Part shown: piece after piece, positions 3,805 through 20,656 of the stretch | Layout: every line of letters starts with the position of its first letter | How positions within the stretch are numbered: position 1 is the stretch's first letter | Sequence record: NC_054916.1 | Source of the DNA: Escherichia phage vB_EcoM-G28 | Direction: 5' to 3' (one strand) | DNA: 64,000 nt | Made by a program: the position numbers and the translations under genes | The notes under the pieces: generated by a model | What the model was told of the DNA's origin: nothing | What the model saw: the letters and a program-made list of their open reading frames with translations, nothing else | Database searches by the model: none

Positions 3805-4485
3805 TTATTTTAATGTTACGAAAGAAGAATTGCGTGTTTCACGAATTAAAACTGATCCGTCGCGATTAATGTAATAAATTAAGCTAAACAAAGTTTGGTG
3901 TGCTGACGCGTGTTCAAAACTAGTTGGATGAGATTTCCAATCAGGAGTTTCAGCGATCCATTGATAAATCCACCAAGGAACCGTACAGAATCCTGGATTT
4001 TTCCCCAATAATTGAAGATTCGGACTAAAGTTTTCCGGAAGAGTAAATACAGACGGCTTTTCAGATTCAATAATCTCAGCTACAGCTTGTTCAAACTTTT
4101 CTTCAACAAAAGGAGTGTCTTCAATCAAAACATCGGTATTTTCAGGAATTTTATCCGTTTCGACTACTTCAATTTTAATATCAGATTTAACCGGAGAATC
4201 AATCAGAAGTGCTGCTTCTGGATTAACTTCTTCATCGTCATATTTTAATCCCTCTGCAGCATCAGCAGCATTGATTAAGTCTTTAATAGATAACCCATCA
4301 GTCTCTGGCATAGGTTCACTAGCGAGCTTCTGGAGGGCTTCTTCAATATCAACAACGATATTATCAAAAGATTTATTCTTTTTGACCTTTATACCAAACT
4401 GTTCAGCGTATTCAGCTAATTTAGCTTTAGCTTCTTTATTATCATCAAGAGCCTTCAACTCTGCAATATAATCTTTATCTATCAT
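3805..4485 (-). CDS. inh: Inhibitor of prohead protease (Inh)
   Basis: 226 aa acidic protein at the T4 inh position between hoc and segE. Confidence 0.7.
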   Translation of the reverse strand: MIDKDYIAELKALDDNKEAKAKLAEYAEQFGIKVKKNKSFDNIVVDIEEALQKLASEPMPETDGLSIKDLINAADAAEGLKYDDEEVNPEAALLIDSPVKSDIKIEVVETDKIPENTDVLIEDTPFVEEKFEQAVAEIIESEKPSVFTLPENFSPNLQLLGKNPGFCTVPWWIYQWIAETPDWKSHPTSFEHASAHQTLFSLIYYINRDGSVLIRETRNSSFVTLK

Positions 4486-4498
4486 AATATTTCCTCAG

Positions 4499-4506
4499 TA
4501 TAAATA
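4499..4506 (+). promoter_or_regulatory. T4 late promoter element TATAAATA upstream of segE
   Basis: Exact TATAAATA about 29 nt upstream of the segE ATG. Confidence 0.45.
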
Positions 4507-4534
4507 TAGATATATTTATTACTCGGAAAATAGT

Positions 4535-5152
4535 ATGTACCACTTTGTATATGAAACAACAAATCTAATAAATGGTAAAAAGTATATAGGAAAACACTCT
4601 ACTGATGACTTGAATGATGGTTACCTTGGTTCCGGTAAGGCAATTCAGCAGGCTATAAAGAAATATGGTGAAAACAATTTTTCTAGAACAATACTAAAAG
4701 AGTTTAAAACTTCCGAAGAAGCGTACATGTATGAAGAAGAAATTATAACTCCTGAAATAATAAAAAGCAAAAATTATTATAATATGAAACCTGGTGGAAT
4801 TGGTGGAATTGTTATGACTACAGAGGTTATAGCAAAGATGAAAGAATCTTCCGCTAAGAGATTTGAAAACTCACCGGGCACGGTATTAGGTACAACTTGT
4901 TACACTAATGGAACTAAAAATATTTTTATTAAACCTGGAGAACTTGTTCCAGAAGGATTTGTAAAAGGGATGGTTCATCCTAATAGAAAGTCCAGAAAAG
5001 GATGTAAAGTCAAACCGACTACCACAGGAACTTTTTGGGTCAATAATGGTGCAATAAATAAATTAATACAACCAGACGGTATTATTCCCGACGGATTTAT
5101 TAAAGGTCGTCTCATGAAAAGAGATTCTAAAGGCAAATTTAGTAAGGCATAA
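4535..5152 (+). CDS. segE: GIY-YIG homing endonuclease SegE
   Basis: 205 aa; N-terminal GIY-YIG-type motif HFVYETTNLINGKKYIGK; position between inh and uvsW. Confidence 0.8.
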   Translation: MYHFVYETTNLINGKKYIGKHSTDDLNDGYLGSGKAIQQAIKKYGENNFSRTILKEFKTSEEAYMYEEEIITPEIIKSKNYYNMKPGGIGGIVMTTEVIAKMKESSAKRFENSPGTVLGTTCYTNGTKNIFIKPGELVPEGFVKGMVHPNRKSRKGCKVKPTTTGTFWVNNGAINKLIQPDGIIPDGFIKGRLMKRDSKGKFSKA

Positions 5153-5154
5153 TT

Positions 5155-6663
5155 ATGGATATTAAAGTACATTTTCACGACTTCAGTCATGTACGCATCG
5201 ATTGTGAAGAGAGCACGTTCCACGAATTAAGAGATTTCTTTTCGTTTGAGGCCGATGGATATAGATTTAACCCTCGCTTCAGATATGGCAACTGGGATGG
5301 ACGAATCCGTCTTTTAGATTATAATCGTCTTCTTCCATTCGGCTTAGTCGGGCAAATTAAAAAGTTCTGTGATAACTTTGGCTATAAAGCCTGGATTGAC
5401 CCACAAATTAACGAAAAAGAAGAATTATCAAGAAAAGATTTTGATGAATGGCTTTCTAAATTAGAAATCTATTCAGGAAATAAAAGAATTGAACCACACT
5501 GGTATCAAAAAGATGCAGTGTTCGAAGGATTAGTTAATCGTCGTAGAATTCTTAATCTTCCAACATCTGCAGGTAAATCTTTAATTCAGGCTCTGCTTGC
5601 GCGATATTATTTGGAAAATTATGAAGGTAAAATTCTTATCATTGTTCCAACAACTGCTCTGACAACTCAGATGGCTGATGACTTTGTTGATTATCGTTTA
5701 TTCAGTCACGCAATGATAAAGAAAATTGGTGGCGGAGCATCAAAAGATGATAAATATAAAAATGATGCACCAGTCGTTGTTGGTACATGGCAAACTGTAG
5801 TAAAACAACCAAAAGAATGGTTCTCACAGTTTGGAATGATGATGAATGATGAATGCCATCTTGCTACAGGAAAAAGTATTTCATCTATCATATCAGGTTT
5901 AAATAACTGCATGTTCAAATTTGGTCTATCTGGTTCATTACGTGACGGCAAAGCCAATATCATGCAGTATGTTGGAATGTTTGGCGAAATATTTAAGCCA
6001 GTAACGACTTCTAAGTTAATGGAAGATGGGCAAGTAACTGAGCTAAAAATTAATAGTATTTTTCTTCGTTATCCTGATGAGTTCACTACTAAATTAAAGG
6101 GAAAAACTTACCAAGAAGAAATAAAAATTATTACTGGGCTCAGTAAAAGAAATAAATGGATAGCTAAATTAGCTATTAAGCTTGCGCAAAAAGATGAAAA
6201 CGCTTTTGTCATGTTTAAACATGTATCACATGGTAAAGCTATTTTCGATTTAATTAAAAATGAATACGATAAAGTTTATTACGTATCAGGGGAAGTTGAT
6301 ACCGAAACCCGCAATATAATGAAAACCTTAGCTGAAAATGGCAAAGGAATAATTATAGTAGCTAGTTATGGTGTATTTTCTACTGGTATTTCAGTTAAAA
6401 ATCTGCATCACGTTGTTTTAGCGCACGGTGTTAAATCAAAAATCATTGTATTACAAACAATCGGTCGTGTATTACGTAAGCATGGTTCTAAGACAATAGC
6501 AACAGTCTGGGATCTTATAGATGACGCGGGCGTAGTTTCTAAATCAAAAACATCTTCTAAAAAATACTCGCATTTAAACTATCTTTTAAAACATGGACTT
6601 GATCGTATTCAGCGTTATGCTGATGAAAAGTTTAATTATGTGATGAAAGAGGTTAAACTTTGA
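5155..6663 (+). CDS. uvsW: UvsW DNA/RNA helicase
   Basis: 502 aa; SF2 helicase motifs (PTSAGKS Walker A, DECH box); synteny. Confidence 0.92.
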   Translation: MDIKVHFHDFSHVRIDCEESTFHELRDFFSFEADGYRFNPRFRYGNWDGRIRLLDYNRLLPFGLVGQIKKFCDNFGYKAWIDPQINEKEELSRKDFDEWLSKLEIYSGNKRIEPHWYQKDAVFEGLVNRRRILNLPTSAGKSLIQALLARYYLENYEGKILIIVPTTALTTQMADDFVDYRLFSHAMIKKIGGGASKDDKYKNDAPVVVGTWQTVVKQPKEWFSQFGMMMNDECHLATGKSISSIISGLNNCMFKFGLSGSLRDGKANIMQYVGMFGEIFKPVTTSKLMEDGQVTELKINSIFLRYPDEFTTKLKGKTYQEEIKIITGLSKRNKWIAKLAIKLAQKDENAFVMFKHVSHGKAIFDLIKNEYDKVYYVSGEVDTETRNIMKTLAENGKGIIIVASYGVFSTGISVKNLHHVVLAHGVKSKIIVLQTIGRVLRKHGSKTIATVWDLIDDAGVVSKSKTSSKKYSHLNYLLKHGLDRIQRYADEKFNYVMKEVKL

Positions 6664-15881: not shown

Positions 15882-15885
15882 CAAT

Positions 15886-15915
15886 GGGGACCGAAAGGTC
15901 CCCATATTTTTATTT
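15886..15915 (+). terminator. GGGGACC-GAAA-GGTCCCC hairpin with T-run after gene 54
   Basis: 7-bp stem, GAAA loop, followed by ATATTTTTATTT. Confidence 0.65.
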
Positions 15916-16200
15916 ACGGAATGAAATAAAAGCAGCAACTGAAGCAACTAAACTGTCTTCAATATAAACTTCAATTTTTACCGGAGCTTCTGACTCAAAT
16001 TTACCTGTTACTACACCTTGGAAAATGCTTTCAGTCTGTTCTGGCTTTGAAAAATTTTCAGAAGGAAAAATTCCGAACTTTTTATCTGTTCCAAAAATTT
16101 TGATAAATTCATCGTAAACCGCTTCATTAAAAGCGTTATCAGCAGGAATAACGCCTTCAACTACGAGTTCTTGACCTAAAAAGCGCAAAGAAGATTTCAT
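15910..16200 (-). CDS. Hypothetical protein (alt.-3 position)
   Basis: 96 aa ORF downstream of early promoter. Confidence 0.6.
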   Translation of the reverse strand: MKSSLRFLGQELVVEGVIPADNAFNEAVYDEFIKIFGTDKKFGIFPSENFSKPEQTESIFQGVVTGKFESEAPVKIEVYIEDSLVASVAAFISFRK

Positions 16201-16231: not shown

Positions 16232-16261
16232 ATTATAACACAACACGAGGGACTTGTAAAC
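16232..16261 (-). promoter_or_regulatory. Early sigma70-type promoter (-35 GTTTACA, 17-nt spacer, extended -10 TGTTATAAT)
   Basis: Read on minus strand; part of a 54-bp sequence repeated identically at 31723 and 32074. Confidence 0.55.
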
Positions 16262-18318
16262 TATATTTTGAACTTTTTAGACATTTCGTTGATGTTAACC
16301 AAAGAAGCCAAGATTTGAGAAACTTCGTTTTCCTCTTCTTTTGATTCTTCTACAAGGAATTGATTAAATCCAGCCATTGGACGAACTTCACCAGTTTCCA
16401 TTAGATGGTCGCCATCATATACCGATTCTTCTAACTGTTCAGAAGGAGGAACGATTGTGCCTTCGATTAGATACTTGTTATAAGCAGTTTCTTTCATCAT
16501 GTACGTACTCACTTTATTAATCTTCAGCAAAATTCCACGCGGTAGAATAACTTCAGCTTCTGATGGAAATCCTGATAAATGACCTGGAACGATAACTTTG
16601 ATTCGCTCAGCTCCTTTAATTACCATACCCGCGCTAGTTTCAGCATCTTCATTGGCATACGTAGAATGACTGCCCATATGCATCAAATCTTCAGCATCAA
16701 CTGAACCTTCTCCTTCACCAGAAAATACTGTGCCGGAATCATCTAGAGCCATATAGTTTTTACCATACTCACCGAAGATATTTGGTTTAAGCGATGTGGA
16801 TACGAAGTTCTTGAAGTAGAACATTTTATTTTCAATATTATGACGTAAAGTTTTAAAGGTAACTTCTTGTCCACGGTAAAGTGTAGTTCCTGGAGGAAGA
16901 ACTGATCCTTTGGCAAAGGCAGAATCCATTGTCTCGATGTGTTTAATAGCTCGTTCCATATATTCTTCACGGGTAGAATCCGGTTTACCTAAAAGGAACG
17001 AGTTCATTTCAACATATGAATCTGCACAATAATCTTCAATTACATCAGACTCAGCTTGAGTTAATCCTTTTGGAGTTACTTCAGTACTTGCATATTCATA
17101 CGCTTGAGAAGCAGACTCATTAATCAATTTATAAATGCCATTCATGACAAATTGAACAATAGCTACCTTTTCATCTGGTGTAGCTTTAGAACCTTTAACT
17201 AAATCATTGACGATTTTCTTAATAACATCAAAGCTATTAGAAATATTAATGTCAGCAAGATCACTTAAAATTTTATCAGTTTTATAATCAAAAAATTCTT
17301 TATTCTTTAAATATTCTTGAGAACCTTGATATGATATATCGCTCTGTAACTTGATAGATGGATCACGTAAACGCGCATGAGCCAATGCAATATGATTTCG
17401 GAAGCTTTCTAATTCATAATCGCTAGATTTAAAACGGGAAGCACTTCTCATACCACCGATAGCTCCTTTGCTGAAGTTTGAACCAACCTGAATAACGCCA
17501 GAGTTCATTGGTCCTTCTGCTTTATATACCGGAACTTTAGATTCAAACTCTTGATATTTCTTAGCAGCGAAGCTATCACCCTGAAGTGAAGCATCGACAG
17601 TAGAATATTGAGCTTGTGCTGCTAATCGACGACTAATTTTAGTTTTCTGAATAACAGCTTGATCCGTACGCTTATCATTTTCTAAAGCAATAGAAGCAGC
17701 AACAGCAACAGCTTTAGGAACAGCATTGCCTGTTTTAACATCTACATAAACATCACCAACCTTTGATTCAACTTTTGTGAATAACTCAGTTGAAATAGGA
17801 GGTACACCTGGAATGTCTTCTAAATTGGCATTTTTACGGTAAACCATAATATATGCATATTTCTTATCATAGTCCCAGATTTCCTTTAAAAGAACATATC
17901 GACCTGCTCCTTTAGTACGTACTAAACGGTCGGCAATAACTTGCATTTGACGAGCTGCACCGTTTGTTTTACTCTTTAGTACGCGGAATAAGCATGCGTC
18001 AATTTTGTACTGTTTCATTGTCTGAAGAGCAGTATCAAAAACCGCATTAATAACACCAATTGGATTTCCACCCAAGTTTTTAAGTTTAACGAGCGATAGT
18101 TTCTCATTAACACCTATCATTACGATATGCATCATTTTATCGCCTGGCTTAACGTTTTTATTTGTATCACCGCCAGAGGTGTATGTACAAAATCTAAATC
18201 CAGGAAGCACGCTTTCTTCACCGGCTTGAATAGCAAAAATTTGAGGTATTTTATGCTTAGGATTTAAGTTAACAACCGGCGCCGAAGCGCCGTCAAATAA
18301 TTCTGTAATAAGTTCCAT
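16261..18318 (-). CDS. Alt-family ADP-ribosyltransferase paralogue (685 aa)
   Basis: R-S-E ART motifs (LYRG, VSTSL, EAEVILPRG); N-terminus MELITELFD shared with adjacent paralogue. Confidence 0.8.
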   Translation of the reverse strand: MELITELFDGASAPVVNLNPKHKIPQIFAIQAGEESVLPGFRFCTYTSGGDTNKNVKPGDKMMHIVMIGVNEKLSLVKLKNLGGNPIGVINAVFDTALQTMKQYKIDACLFRVLKSKTNGAARQMQVIADRLVRTKGAGRYVLLKEIWDYDKKYAYIMVYRKNANLEDIPGVPPISTELFTKVESKVGDVYVDVKTGNAVPKAVAVAASIALENDKRTDQAVIQKTKISRRLAAQAQYSTVDASLQGDSFAAKKYQEFESKVPVYKAEGPMNSGVIQVGSNFSKGAIGGMRSASRFKSSDYELESFRNHIALAHARLRDPSIKLQSDISYQGSQEYLKNKEFFDYKTDKILSDLADINISNSFDVIKKIVNDLVKGSKATPDEKVAIVQFVMNGIYKLINESASQAYEYASTEVTPKGLTQAESDVIEDYCADSYVEMNSFLLGKPDSTREEYMERAIKHIETMDSAFAKGSVLPPGTTLYRGQEVTFKTLRHNIENKMFYFKNFVSTSLKPNIFGEYGKNYMALDDSGTVFSGEGEGSVDAEDLMHMGSHSTYANEDAETSAGMVIKGAERIKVIVPGHLSGFPSEAEVILPRGILLKINKVSTYMMKETAYNKYLIEGTIVPPSEQLEESVYDGDHLMETGEVRPMAGFNQFLVEESKEEENEVSQILASLVNINEMSKKFKI

Positions 18319-18321
18319 GAT

Positions 18322-20418
18322 TTATCCTTGAACGAACTTGTAAGGCATGTTTGTAATATCTATGCAAGACGCAATAATTCCAAGAGATGATTCTACTTTC
18401 TGTTTAACATTTGATGAAACAAATGATGCAAAGTCAACTCTGTCTTCTATTTCAATATCACCTGTCATTGCAATTACTTCACCAGTTTCCATTAGACGGT
18501 CACCGTCATAAATTACTGATTCGGTGAGTTCTTCCGTAGTCATAACTTCAGCTTGAATGAGTTTTGTATTATTAGATGTTGTTCCGTCATTATTAGAAGC
18601 ATCAGTTATTTTATTAACTTTGACCATCAATCCGCGTGGTAGAATAACTTCAGCTTCTGTTGCTATTCCGAGACTTCCTGGATATACAACATTAACTTTA
18701 TGAGCTCCATCAATTGCCCATCCTATTTGAACTTTAACGTATTCAGGATTTTCTTTATACGCTCTTATTTCGTTTGGATTAATAGTTATTCCTTCTTCAT
18801 TTTTATCAACTGTTAATTCATTACGAGCTTCTGGTTCTAAAAGACCAATGCCAGCATGTGTAATTCCAAAACGCCCAAAAATGATAGGAGTTAAAGAAGT
18901 AGATACAAAATTTCTGAAATAGAACACTTTATTTTTAACTAGCGCTTCGTATATAGGAGCAGTCATACTTTGAGCACGATAAACTGTAATGCTTTCTGGT
19001 ATACGGTCACCGTTTTCAAAAGCTGAATCTAAGTTATTTATAGCAGATTCAATTTCTTTTTCACTCATTACATCATATCGTTCTGGATTGTAGCGTCCTA
19101 AAAGAAGATTATTGATGTCAGTATATCCTGAACCGCAATACTCTCTAATGCCGCGCTTTTGTGATGGAGTATATTTAGAACCATCACGGGCAATAGTAAT
19201 ATCAATCATTGGACCTGCACCAATTCCAGAAAAACTATAAATCATTCGTTTGATGAATTTAGTTTTTGCTGCGTTCCAGGAATTTTTAGTTATTTCTTCC
19301 CAGACTTCATCTGGCTGCCCTTTACGAGTTTTATTATGTTTATCAAGCCAAGTATCTTTATATTCTTCAAAGAATTTATTAATAGCTGCTGCATACTTCT
19401 CTAAACATTTTATTGAAGTAGTTGGTTCATTTTTGATCGCGTTAAAAATTACGTCTTTAATTTTTTCAGAAACTTCATTAACCTCACTTTTTGAAAAGAA
19501 TTTATAATCATAGTGAAGTTCATCTGCAGTTCCTTCGGCAATAATTTTTGCTGCTTTAGTTTTAGAAGCTAATGAATTAATTCCAAGCTTCATTTCTTCT
19601 GCTTCGGGAATTAAAGGAGCGGTAGCAGGTTTATTGAAATTAGCTGCGGTAGATTCATACTTCTGGAATAATTCGCTTTCAAATCTAGAAGATTCCAATG
19701 ACTGACTTTGCGCAATTGCTCTACGGGAAATTTTAACTTTAACGATTACAGCTTGGTCAGAACGTTTATCATTTTCTTGCGCAATAGATGCAGCAATTGC
19801 CTCATTTTTAGTTACTTGAGCTCCAGTATCTTTATTGATATAAACATCGCCGACTTTCGATTCAACTTTAGTAAAGAGCTCGGTACTAATTTCCGGAACT
19901 CCTGGAATGTCTTCTAGTGATACATTTTTGCGATGTATAAGAATATATGCATACTTTTTATCATAATCCCAGAGTTCCTTAAGAAGGACGTATCTGCCAC
20001 CTGAACGACTACGGATAAGTCTATCAGCAATAACTTGAATTTGTTGAGCTTGACCAGCAGTTTTAGACTTAAGAATACGGAGCATACAGGCATCAATTTT
20101 ATACTGACGCATCGTCTGCATTGCAACAGTAAAAACTGAATTGATATAATTAATTGGGCTTGGACCAAGACCTTTTAATTTGGCAATTGAACCTTTAGCA
20201 GTTAATGTAAAAGGAACAATATGCATCATTTTATCGCCCATTTTTAAATCGCGATTAGTATCACCTCCAGATGTATAGGTACATAAACGAAAGCCCGGTT
20301 GTTCAATTGCATCATCAACGTGAACTGAAAAAATTTGTGGTATTTTCTTCTTTGGATTTAAGTTTGTAATCGGAAGAGTAGTATCTTCGTCAAATAATTC
20401 TGTAATGAGTTCCATCAT
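18322..20418 (-). CDS. alt: Alt ADP-ribosyltransferase (698 aa), copy adjacent to the ligase side
   Basis: R-S-E motifs (VYRAQ, VSTSL, EAEVILPRG); late promoter upstream; synteny next to gene 30 region. Confidence 0.8.
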   Translation of the reverse strand: MMELITELFDEDTTLPITNLNPKKKIPQIFSVHVDDAIEQPGFRLCTYTSGGDTNRDLKMGDKMMHIVPFTLTAKGSIAKLKGLGPSPINYINSVFTVAMQTMRQYKIDACMLRILKSKTAGQAQQIQVIADRLIRSRSGGRYVLLKELWDYDKKYAYILIHRKNVSLEDIPGVPEISTELFTKVESKVGDVYINKDTGAQVTKNEAIAASIAQENDKRSDQAVIVKVKISRRAIAQSQSLESSRFESELFQKYESTAANFNKPATAPLIPEAEEMKLGINSLASKTKAAKIIAEGTADELHYDYKFFSKSEVNEVSEKIKDVIFNAIKNEPTTSIKCLEKYAAAINKFFEEYKDTWLDKHNKTRKGQPDEVWEEITKNSWNAAKTKFIKRMIYSFSGIGAGPMIDITIARDGSKYTPSQKRGIREYCGSGYTDINNLLLGRYNPERYDVMSEKEIESAINNLDSAFENGDRIPESITVYRAQSMTAPIYEALVKNKVFYFRNFVSTSLTPIIFGRFGITHAGIGLLEPEARNELTVDKNEEGITINPNEIRAYKENPEYVKVQIGWAIDGAHKVNVVYPGSLGIATEAEVILPRGLMVKVNKITDASNNDGTTSNNTKLIQAEVMTTEELTESVIYDGDRLMETGEVIAMTGDIEIEDRVDFASFVSSNVKQKVESSLGIIASCIDITNMPYKFVQG

Positions 20419-20438
20419 ATCCTCTCTAGTGTTTATTC

Positions 20439-20446
20439 TATTTATA
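20439..20446 (-). promoter_or_regulatory. Late promoter TATAAATA upstream of alt
   Basis: Minus-strand TATAAATA about 20 nt upstream of the alt ATG; a GGCC-rich hairpin lies just upstream. Confidence 0.5.
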
Positions 20447-20467
20447 AAATTAAAGGCCCGAAGGCCT

Positions 20468-20656
20468 TTAATAATCTATTGGTAAGAGAGTACGATATAT
20501 TTCAAACTTTGGACCTTTTTCATAAGCATCAAAAGTTTCTGTGAATTTATTATAAGCATATGCATCTATAAATTCAATCATGATTTGTGATACAGAAGTA
20601 GAAACATCTCCACCTTCTTTTTGAGCCACGACAATTGTTTCTAAGTAAGCTTTCAT
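20468..20656 (-). CDS. Hypothetical protein (alt.1 position)
   Basis: 62 aa ORF overlapping the ligase stop. Confidence 0.5.
   Translation of the reverse strand: MKAYLETIVVAQKEGGDVSTSVSQIMIEFIDAYAYNKFTETFDAYEKGPKFEIYRTLLPIDY

Follow-up and report, generated by a model that had tools for sequence, protein, structure and literature searches.

Tandem alt genes in Escherichia phage vB_EcoM-G28: a conserved second Alt-family gene, predicted to encode an ADP-ribosyltransferase, of which phage T4 appears to keep a truncated remnant

A described counterpart of the locus considered here is the gene alt of bacteriophage T4. Its product is present in about 40 copies in the prohead core, loses an N-terminal peptide to the gp21 protease and is injected (PMC9958956), and it ADP-ribosylates Arg265 of the RNA polymerase alpha subunit as well as other proteins (PMC2988021). 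The T4 alt record (X15811) gives a ribosome binding site (RBS), a coding sequence beginning MELITE and a mature peptide without the first 6 residues. T4 also carries alt.-1 and alt.-2, which its record describes as "an old duplication of the first part of gene alt". Nolan et al. 2006 (PMC1524935) count among paralogous duplications both alt.-1/alt.-2 and the complete second copies of alt that other T4-like phages possess. Two further T4 enzymes, ModA and ModB, are phage ADP-ribosyltransferases (ARTs) of the R-S-E clade whose targets belong to the transcription and translation apparatus of the host (PMC5512222, PMC2988021); in contrast to Alt they are small early proteins, unpackaged, devoid of the Tevenvirinae_ADPRT N-domain and encoded elsewhere in the genome. 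Here we analyse a 64,000-nucleotide stretch of Escherichia phage vB_EcoM-G28 (NC_054916.1; hereafter the window), in which two full-length Alt-family genes, alt1 and alt2, stand in tandem (table 1).

Alt1 is the positional orthologue of T4 Alt (NP_049811), placed between alt.1/gene 30 and alt.-3/gene 54 and behind the same late promoter. Alt2 has its domains in the same order as T4 Alt and likewise carries the R/STS/ExE residues and a MELITE propeptide, but it is only 41-45% identical to it (54-75% over the first 240 residues) and represents a separate, older paralogue. The initial annotation had proposed two adjacent Alt-type ART genes with R-S-E motifs in open reading frames (ORFs) of 685 and 698 amino acids lying 3 nt apart. 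This description stands, given the ORFs themselves, the matches to PF03496 and phrog_802 and the invariant R, STS and ExE residues; the junction reads ...CAAGGA TAA atc ATG GAA.... The same annotation had also presented the pair as a departure from a known single-alt arrangement, a view which the reference genomes contradict. Pairs of 697 and 685 amino acids are present in T2 and T6, and the pair is found as well in RB18, RB27, phiD1, Sf21, slur07 and ZN18. Overall, 355 phage records match the 4.9-kb locus at >=90% nucleotide identity over >=80% of its length (about 97% for the pair, the best match being 97.7% identical), and approximately 400 hold the Alt2-specific segment (residues 240-640) at >=95% amino-acid identity. 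RefSeq names both products "Alt-like RNA polymerase ADP-ribosyltransferase", the RB27 record labels the second gene "alt.-2" (YP_009102398), and duplication had been noted in 2006 (PMC1524935). In effect, the window alt2 is another copy of the second Alt-like gene of T2, T6, RB18, RB27, phiD1 and Sf21 (Sf21 gp189, YP_009619003), with the same position, the same 685 amino acids, 97-98% amino-acid identity and no difference of substance. The alt pair is thus already known as a standard annotated locus of T2/T6-type phages and, annotated in hundreds of genomes, adds nothing new as a sequence feature. The intact pair is the majority state among T4-like coliphages, T4 being the exception. A tandem with a 697-aa Alt1-like gene is likewise formed by a more remote relative that shares 74% identity with Alt2, and the pairing is therefore older than the T2/T4/T6 group.

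Sequence comparison indicates that Alt1 and Alt2 are both intact Alt-family genes that keep every catalytic residue. The Pfam family PF03496 (ADPrib_exo_Tox; score cut-off 23.4 bits) is matched at 129.5 bits by Alt1 (E 1.3e-37) and at 72.5 bits by Alt2 (E 3.9e-20), and phrog_802 ("Alt-like RNA polymerase ADP-ribosyltransferase") aligns end to end with each of them (Alt1 residues 1-697, E 5e-271; Alt2 residues 1-684, E 2e-254). The Pfam scan that gave PF03496 did not report PF26846 (Tevenvirinae_ADPRT) for the window proteins themselves; both domains are precomputed on homologues, PF26846 being found on a 98%-identical representative and on all full-length homologues. When 18 Alt-family proteins (42-92% identical to Alt2) are aligned, the arginine of the Y-R motif, both serines of S-T-S and both glutamates of ExE, followed by I-L-P-R-G, are invariant, so that the quoted YR, STS and EAE motifs are indeed present and careful alignment revealed no loss of a catalytic residue. 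Both proteins also begin with MELITE-LFD.

The relationship to ARTs of solved structure was reached by different routes for the two proteins. The Alt1 sequence by itself aligns to CdtA and iota toxin over the catalytic arginine and ExE. For Alt2, a phmmer search against PDB sequences returned no match at E <=0.01, and hence the 18-member profile and a predicted structure were needed to connect it to solved ARTs. The family profile aligns the arginine and ExE with the YR and QxE/ExE of C3cer (4xsg), CPILE-a and Certhrax. The AlphaFold2 model of Alt2 (mean predicted local distance difference test score, pLDDT, of 74) is laid out as a disordered N-terminal peptide (1-11), an alpha/beta N-domain (approximately 15-225), a helical region (230-470) and an ART core (480-625); the tail (629-685) is unmodelled, yet it holds the family-invariant Y-D-G-D…E-x-G-E…F..F…K-F. 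Foldseek searches with this model ranked Vis, C3bot, CDTa, VIP2 and Certhrax highest among PDB entries (probability 1.00, E 3e-8 to 2e-5), with template modelling (TM) scores of 0.55-0.68 normalised to the target toxin and 94 PDB matches at E <=0.001. The Alts thus have in common with the R-S-E toxins C3, VIP2, iota, CDTa and Vis the catalytic fold and the arrangement of the arginine, S-T-S and the (Q/E)xE of the ARTT loop, but sequence identity amounts to 14-19%. Unlike these toxins, the Alts also have an N-domain peculiar to phages (PF26846), together with a long helical linker and a tail at the C-terminus, and delivery is from the phage head (for the window proteins by homology with T4 Alt) rather than through a binary-toxin B component. 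The ExE motif, as opposed to the QxE of C3, is a signature of arginine-specific ARTs, and iota, CDTa and VIP2 carry it as Alt1 and Alt2 do. On this motif, Alt1 and Alt2 are predicted to be arginine-specific mono-ADP-ribosyltransferases, which fits the specificity of T4 Alt for Arg265.

The two paralogues are 41-43% identical overall (E 9e-162), and this similarity is unevenly distributed. In blocks of 40 alignment columns the first ~240 residues are 56-75% identical and the helical centre 4-30%, in agreement with the shared N-terminus and substantially differing centre described initially; most of the ART domain and the tail lie at 30-46%, and the loop between STS and ExE at 14%. Alt1 is 98% identical to the Alt1 of T2 and T6. 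Against T4 Alt its overall identity is 71.5%: the first 240 residues agree at ~100% and the tail at 88-94%, but the centre at only 15-30% in its most divergent blocks. By these comparisons, Alt1 is a mosaic carrying a T2/T6-type central and catalytic module, a different allele from that of T4. The window-type module is found in ~310 records and an 80-90% identical variant in ~34, while T4-type phages are ~44-47% identical across the segment; at least two allelic Alt1 modules, T4-type and T2/T6-type, are in circulation. Sf21 pairs a T4-type Alt1 with an intact Alt2. The latter is 97-99% constant whether it stands next to a T4-type Alt1 (Sf21) or a T2/T6-type Alt1 (T6, window), and its central region and substrate-side loop are unrelated to either Alt1 allele.

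Its pattern of substitution shows that alt2, by all appearances a working gene, is under strong purifying selection over the whole protein. In 28 pairwise comparisons among 8 phages the ratio of nonsynonymous to synonymous substitution (dN/dS) is 0.046, with a mean dS of 0.17 and a mean dN of 0.008, and in all 8 the gene has 685 codons and follows the ATC spacer. This spacer is unchanged in 10 of the 10 phages compared, T4 (upstream of alt.-1) included.

The T4 counterpart of alt2 offers a contrast. The T4 genes alt.-1 and alt.-2 (NP_049810, NP_049809) are ~95% nucleotide-identical to the first ~350 nt of the window alt2, and alt.-1 follows alt with the same TAA-atc-ATG junction. Their families, phrog_23015 (alt.-1) and phrog_15247 (alt.-2), match Alt2 residues 1-56 and 62-117, respectively, more strongly than Alt1. 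Two changes separate T4 from the window gene in spite of the common 5' sequence: one base fewer in an A-run (near window position 18148-18152), which breaks the reading frame in two, giving alt.-1 and alt.-2, and the absence of 1,699 nt between two CTAAA(G/A)AGT repeats. The T4-type junction, sought with a 161-nt probe, is contiguous in 91 records, comprising T4 isolates, RB55, RB59 and a set of T4-type phages. Since these compare with ~400 records holding an intact Alt2, the T4 state is best read as a derived, minority loss. Likewise, the sequence comparison indicates that alt.-1/alt.-2 arose through recent truncation of a full-length second alt gene and not as an old partial duplication, and the T4 annotation could be updated to "truncated second alt gene".

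The pair was initially placed behind a late promoter, and this holds on three grounds: its position, its homology to the element marked "late promoter" in the T4 alt record X15811, and its conservation at the same offset in 10 of the 10 phages compared. The call rests on these because the octamer TATAAATA by itself shows no enrichment in the window (11 occurrences, with 9.1 expected). A second TATAAATA occurs inside alt1 at 19035-19042 (minus strand), 724 nt upstream of the alt2 start, in T2, T6, RB18, RB27, phiD1 and slur07; it is absent from ZN18, Sf21 and T4. We considered it as a separate alt2 promoter and rejected it, given this absence, the lack of octamer enrichment and the fact that it encodes A-I-N-N; it is probably a coincidence of these codons. 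No conserved promoter directly precedes alt2 in the phages compared. A Shine-Dalgarno sequence, AAGGA, lies inside the final codons of alt1. As no conserved promoter precedes alt2 and the internal octamer is missing from ZN18, Sf21 and T4, the simplest model is a single late transcript for alt1 and alt2, with alt2 having its own ribosome binding. Regarding the alt1 start, the ORF opens with two consecutive ATGs, with GAGG 5 nt from the second (20415) and 2 nt from the first. From this spacing, the 697 amino acids annotated for Alt1 in other phage records and the start of the coding sequence in the T4 record, translation probably begins at the second ATG and yields 697 amino acids.

In our view, the whole is best explained as an alt1-alt2 two-gene late operon of a Tequatrovirus (T-even) phage, encoding two arginine-specific ARTs that would both be packaged and injected, Alt2 having distinct or overlapping targets; we put the probability of this combined reading at roughly 0.7. 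Each product would comprise the 6-residue MELITE propeptide, an N-domain of ~230 residues (Tevenvirinae_ADPRT), a helical middle part, an ART domain of the C3/VIP2 type with R-S-ExE, and a tail that is conserved in the family. In this scheme both genes would be transcribed late from the shared promoter and both products incorporated in the prohead core, as T4 Alt is; the gp21 protease would trim each of them after MELITE (MELITE↓L); both would be injected with the DNA; and Alt2 would then modify a set of host proteins different from, or overlapping with, that of Alt1. Packaging and injection of both are likely, by analogy with T4 Alt, because neither has lost the MELITE↓L propeptide, the N-domain or the tail. 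Alt2 is accordingly viewed as most likely a second head-packaged arginine-specific mono-ADP-ribosyltransferase with a target set of its own, since its centre and loop are unrelated to those of Alt1 and since it is constant beside either Alt1 allele. A wider or different target range, gained through a second enzyme, is a reasonable expectation from these sequences, and Alt2 would seem to be beneficial in nature though dispensable in the T4 lineage. More tentatively, and at somewhat less than even odds, Alt2 might be another effector that enters with the DNA and has host targets of its own, for instance a protein of defence or stress response instead of RNA polymerase; T4 Alt has been reported to act on many proteins other than RNA polymerase.

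Several points weigh against this explanation. The searchable literature yielded no study of Alt2 packaging, injection, activity or targets, and virion proteomics for Alt2 was not found there either. The T4-type phages (91 records) live without alt2, which is hence non-essential. Central divergence shows that the proteins differ, not that their substrates do. Finally, the AlphaFold2 model of Alt2 is of moderate confidence, built on a shallow 18-sequence alignment and with a pLDDT <50 over the C-terminal ~55 residues.

In an alternative scenario, which we regard as unlikely though the best of the remaining ones, Alt2 is a redundant back-up or dosage copy, packaged and injected but directed at the same main target, Arg265 of the alpha subunit, with no widening of range. 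The common family, catalytic residues, N-domain and tail motifs of Alt1 and Alt2 would accord with such redundancy, as would the loss of Alt2 in T4, a phage nonetheless fully competent, and the overlap that already exists between T4 Alt and ModA on Arg265 (PMC2988021). A mere spare, however, would not be expected to show a dN/dS as low as that of alt2 and 95-99% amino-acid identity across ~400 genomes, while retaining 4-30% identity to Alt1 in the centre; and the constancy of Alt2 beside two very different Alt1 alleles, in Sf21 and T6, suggests a separate role.

Less probable still is that Alt2 is made late but stays out of the head, acting in the producing cell late in infection or being released at lysis. 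A 2023 review states that the localisation of proteins to the scaffolding core "remains mysterious" (PMC9958956), and a shared N-terminus is consequently no guarantee of packaging. The initial annotation took this N-terminus for the region used in capsid packaging; what the T4 record documents is the loss of its first 6 residues. Alt2 nevertheless has an unaltered MELITE propeptide, the one that T4 Alt loses in the prohead. It also retains the N-domain (Tevenvirinae_ADPRT) and, in the tail, the invariant motif YDGD-x-L/M-E-T/S-GE, and would be co-transcribed with alt1 from the late promoter. In addition, natural chimeras with an Alt1 N-terminus and an Alt2 body occupy the alt slot, as expected if the N-termini are interchangeable. 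As for Alt2 being a decaying duplicate or a non-catalytic pseudo-enzyme, the destruction of the gene in T4 and ~90 related records might hint at it, but the full 685-codon frame in 9 of the 9 genomes examined closely, the dN/dS of 0.046, the invariance of R, S-T-S and E-x-E and the recovery of an ART fold at probability 1.00 make it very improbable, and on the dN/dS and invariant residues we reject the pseudogene or inactive-paralogue reading.

The comparison presents T4 as atypical at alt: in most T-even phages, T2 and T6 included, there is a second Alt enzyme, strongly conserved and, it seems, never characterised. If Alt2 is indeed injected and has targets of its own, a standard part of T-even host takeover would have escaped decades of work on T4, because the reference phage deleted alt2. 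In that case, too, the locus with its two exchangeable Alt1 modules would amount to a small recombining arsenal of head-delivered ADP-ribosyltransferases. For research on phage ADP-ribosylation, T2 or T6 rather than T4 could be a cheap route to a new enzyme and its targets.

Single alt genes of chimeric structure were also observed. Three metagenome-derived sequences (P0004, P0006 and P0007) join an Alt1-type N-terminus to an Alt2 body at three different switch points. In the contig of P0006 (Logan SRR24155011) the chimera, at 4001-6055, is the sole alt gene between alt.1 and alt.-3, and its switch falls near nt 540, close to a 16-nt stretch identical in alt1 and alt2. A single chimera filling the alt slot, with a switch that adjoins this stretch, suggests unequal crossing-over between the tandem alt copies, an assembly artefact being a possible alternative.

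Table 1. Positions of the alt genes, their catalytic motifs and the surrounding elements in the window.
Feature	Position	Strand	Details
alt1	18322..20415 (ORF to 20418)	minus	697 aa (ORF 698 aa, MMELITELFDE...); positional orthologue of T4 alt
alt2	16261..18318	minus	685 aa, MELITELFDG...; second Alt-family ADP-ribosyltransferase (predicted); T4 remnant is alt.-1 + alt.-2
alt1/alt2 spacer	18319..18321	minus	3 nt (ATC), between alt1 stop and alt2 ATG
Alt1 catalytic Arg, R481 (698-aa numbering)	18976..18978	minus	VYRAQ; aligns with catalytic Arg of CdtA and iota toxin
Alt1 S-T-S, S506-T-S508	18895..18903	minus	FVSTSL; from family alignment
Alt1 E-A-E, E588-A-E590	18649..18657	minus	ExE, ARTT loop; aligns with EYE of CdtA
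Alt2 catalytic Arg, R482	16873..16875	minus	LYRGQ; invariant in 18 sequences; aligns with YR of C3-like 4xsg, CPILE-a and Certhrax
Alt2 S-T-S, S507-T508-S509	16792..16800	minus	invariant in 18-sequence alignment
Alt2 E-A-E, E587/E589	16552..16560	minus	ARTT loop; invariant in 18 sequences; aligns with C3cer QYE and CPILE-a EYE
T4-type late promoter core, TATAAATA	20439-20446	minus	for the alt1-alt2 unit; between hairpin and GAGG-N5-ATG
alt1 RBS and start region, GAGAGGAT ATG ATG	20413..20426	minus	second ATG at 20415-20413
GC-rich hairpin, AAAGGCC-TTCG-GGCCTTT	20452..20469	minus	overlaps alt.1 stop codon; by direct reading
Left 9-nt microhomology, CTAAAGAGT	17971..17979	minus	T4-lineage deletion starts here
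Right 9-nt microhomology, CTAAAAAGT	16272..16280	minus	other end of 1,699-nt T4 deletion
Near-consensus sigma-70 / T4-early-type promoter, TTTACA-17-TATAAT	16260-16232	minus	upstream TG; 11/12 matches; directly past alt2 stop, ahead of alt.-3
Hairpin, ATGGGGACC-GAAA-GGTCCCCAT	15884-15905	both strands flagged terminator-like	perfect 9 bp; between convergent gene 54 (plus) and alt.-3 (minus)
alt.-3	15910-16200	minus	DUF5498
alt.1	20468-20656	minus	62 aa; Pfam Phage blade protein PF24647, E 7.5e-29

The order of genes around the pair is 48 and 54 (both plus strand), alt.-3 (minus strand), alt2, alt1, alt.1, the DNA ligase gene 30, 30.1 and 30.2. By gene-order comparison this is the neighbourhood of T4 alt, the pair and the baseplate genes lying on opposite strands. 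The hairpin preceding alt1 is conserved across all phages compared, and is not among the terminators listed by the automatic scan of the window; it looks terminator-like and would part the upstream early/middle genes (30 and alt.1) from the late alt unit. On the other flank, the sigma-70-type promoter presumably drives alt.-3 as an early gene independent of the late alt unit, so that the two would be timed differently. Some records wrongly label the alt.1 product as a "siderophore-interacting protein". Plus-strand ORFs of 54-85 amino acids within the alt region run antisense to two strongly conserved genes and are probably spurious. Elsewhere in the window, the best match in the phage collection to the 25 kb from 30001 to 55000 covers 95-97% of this query and reaches ~95-96% identity.

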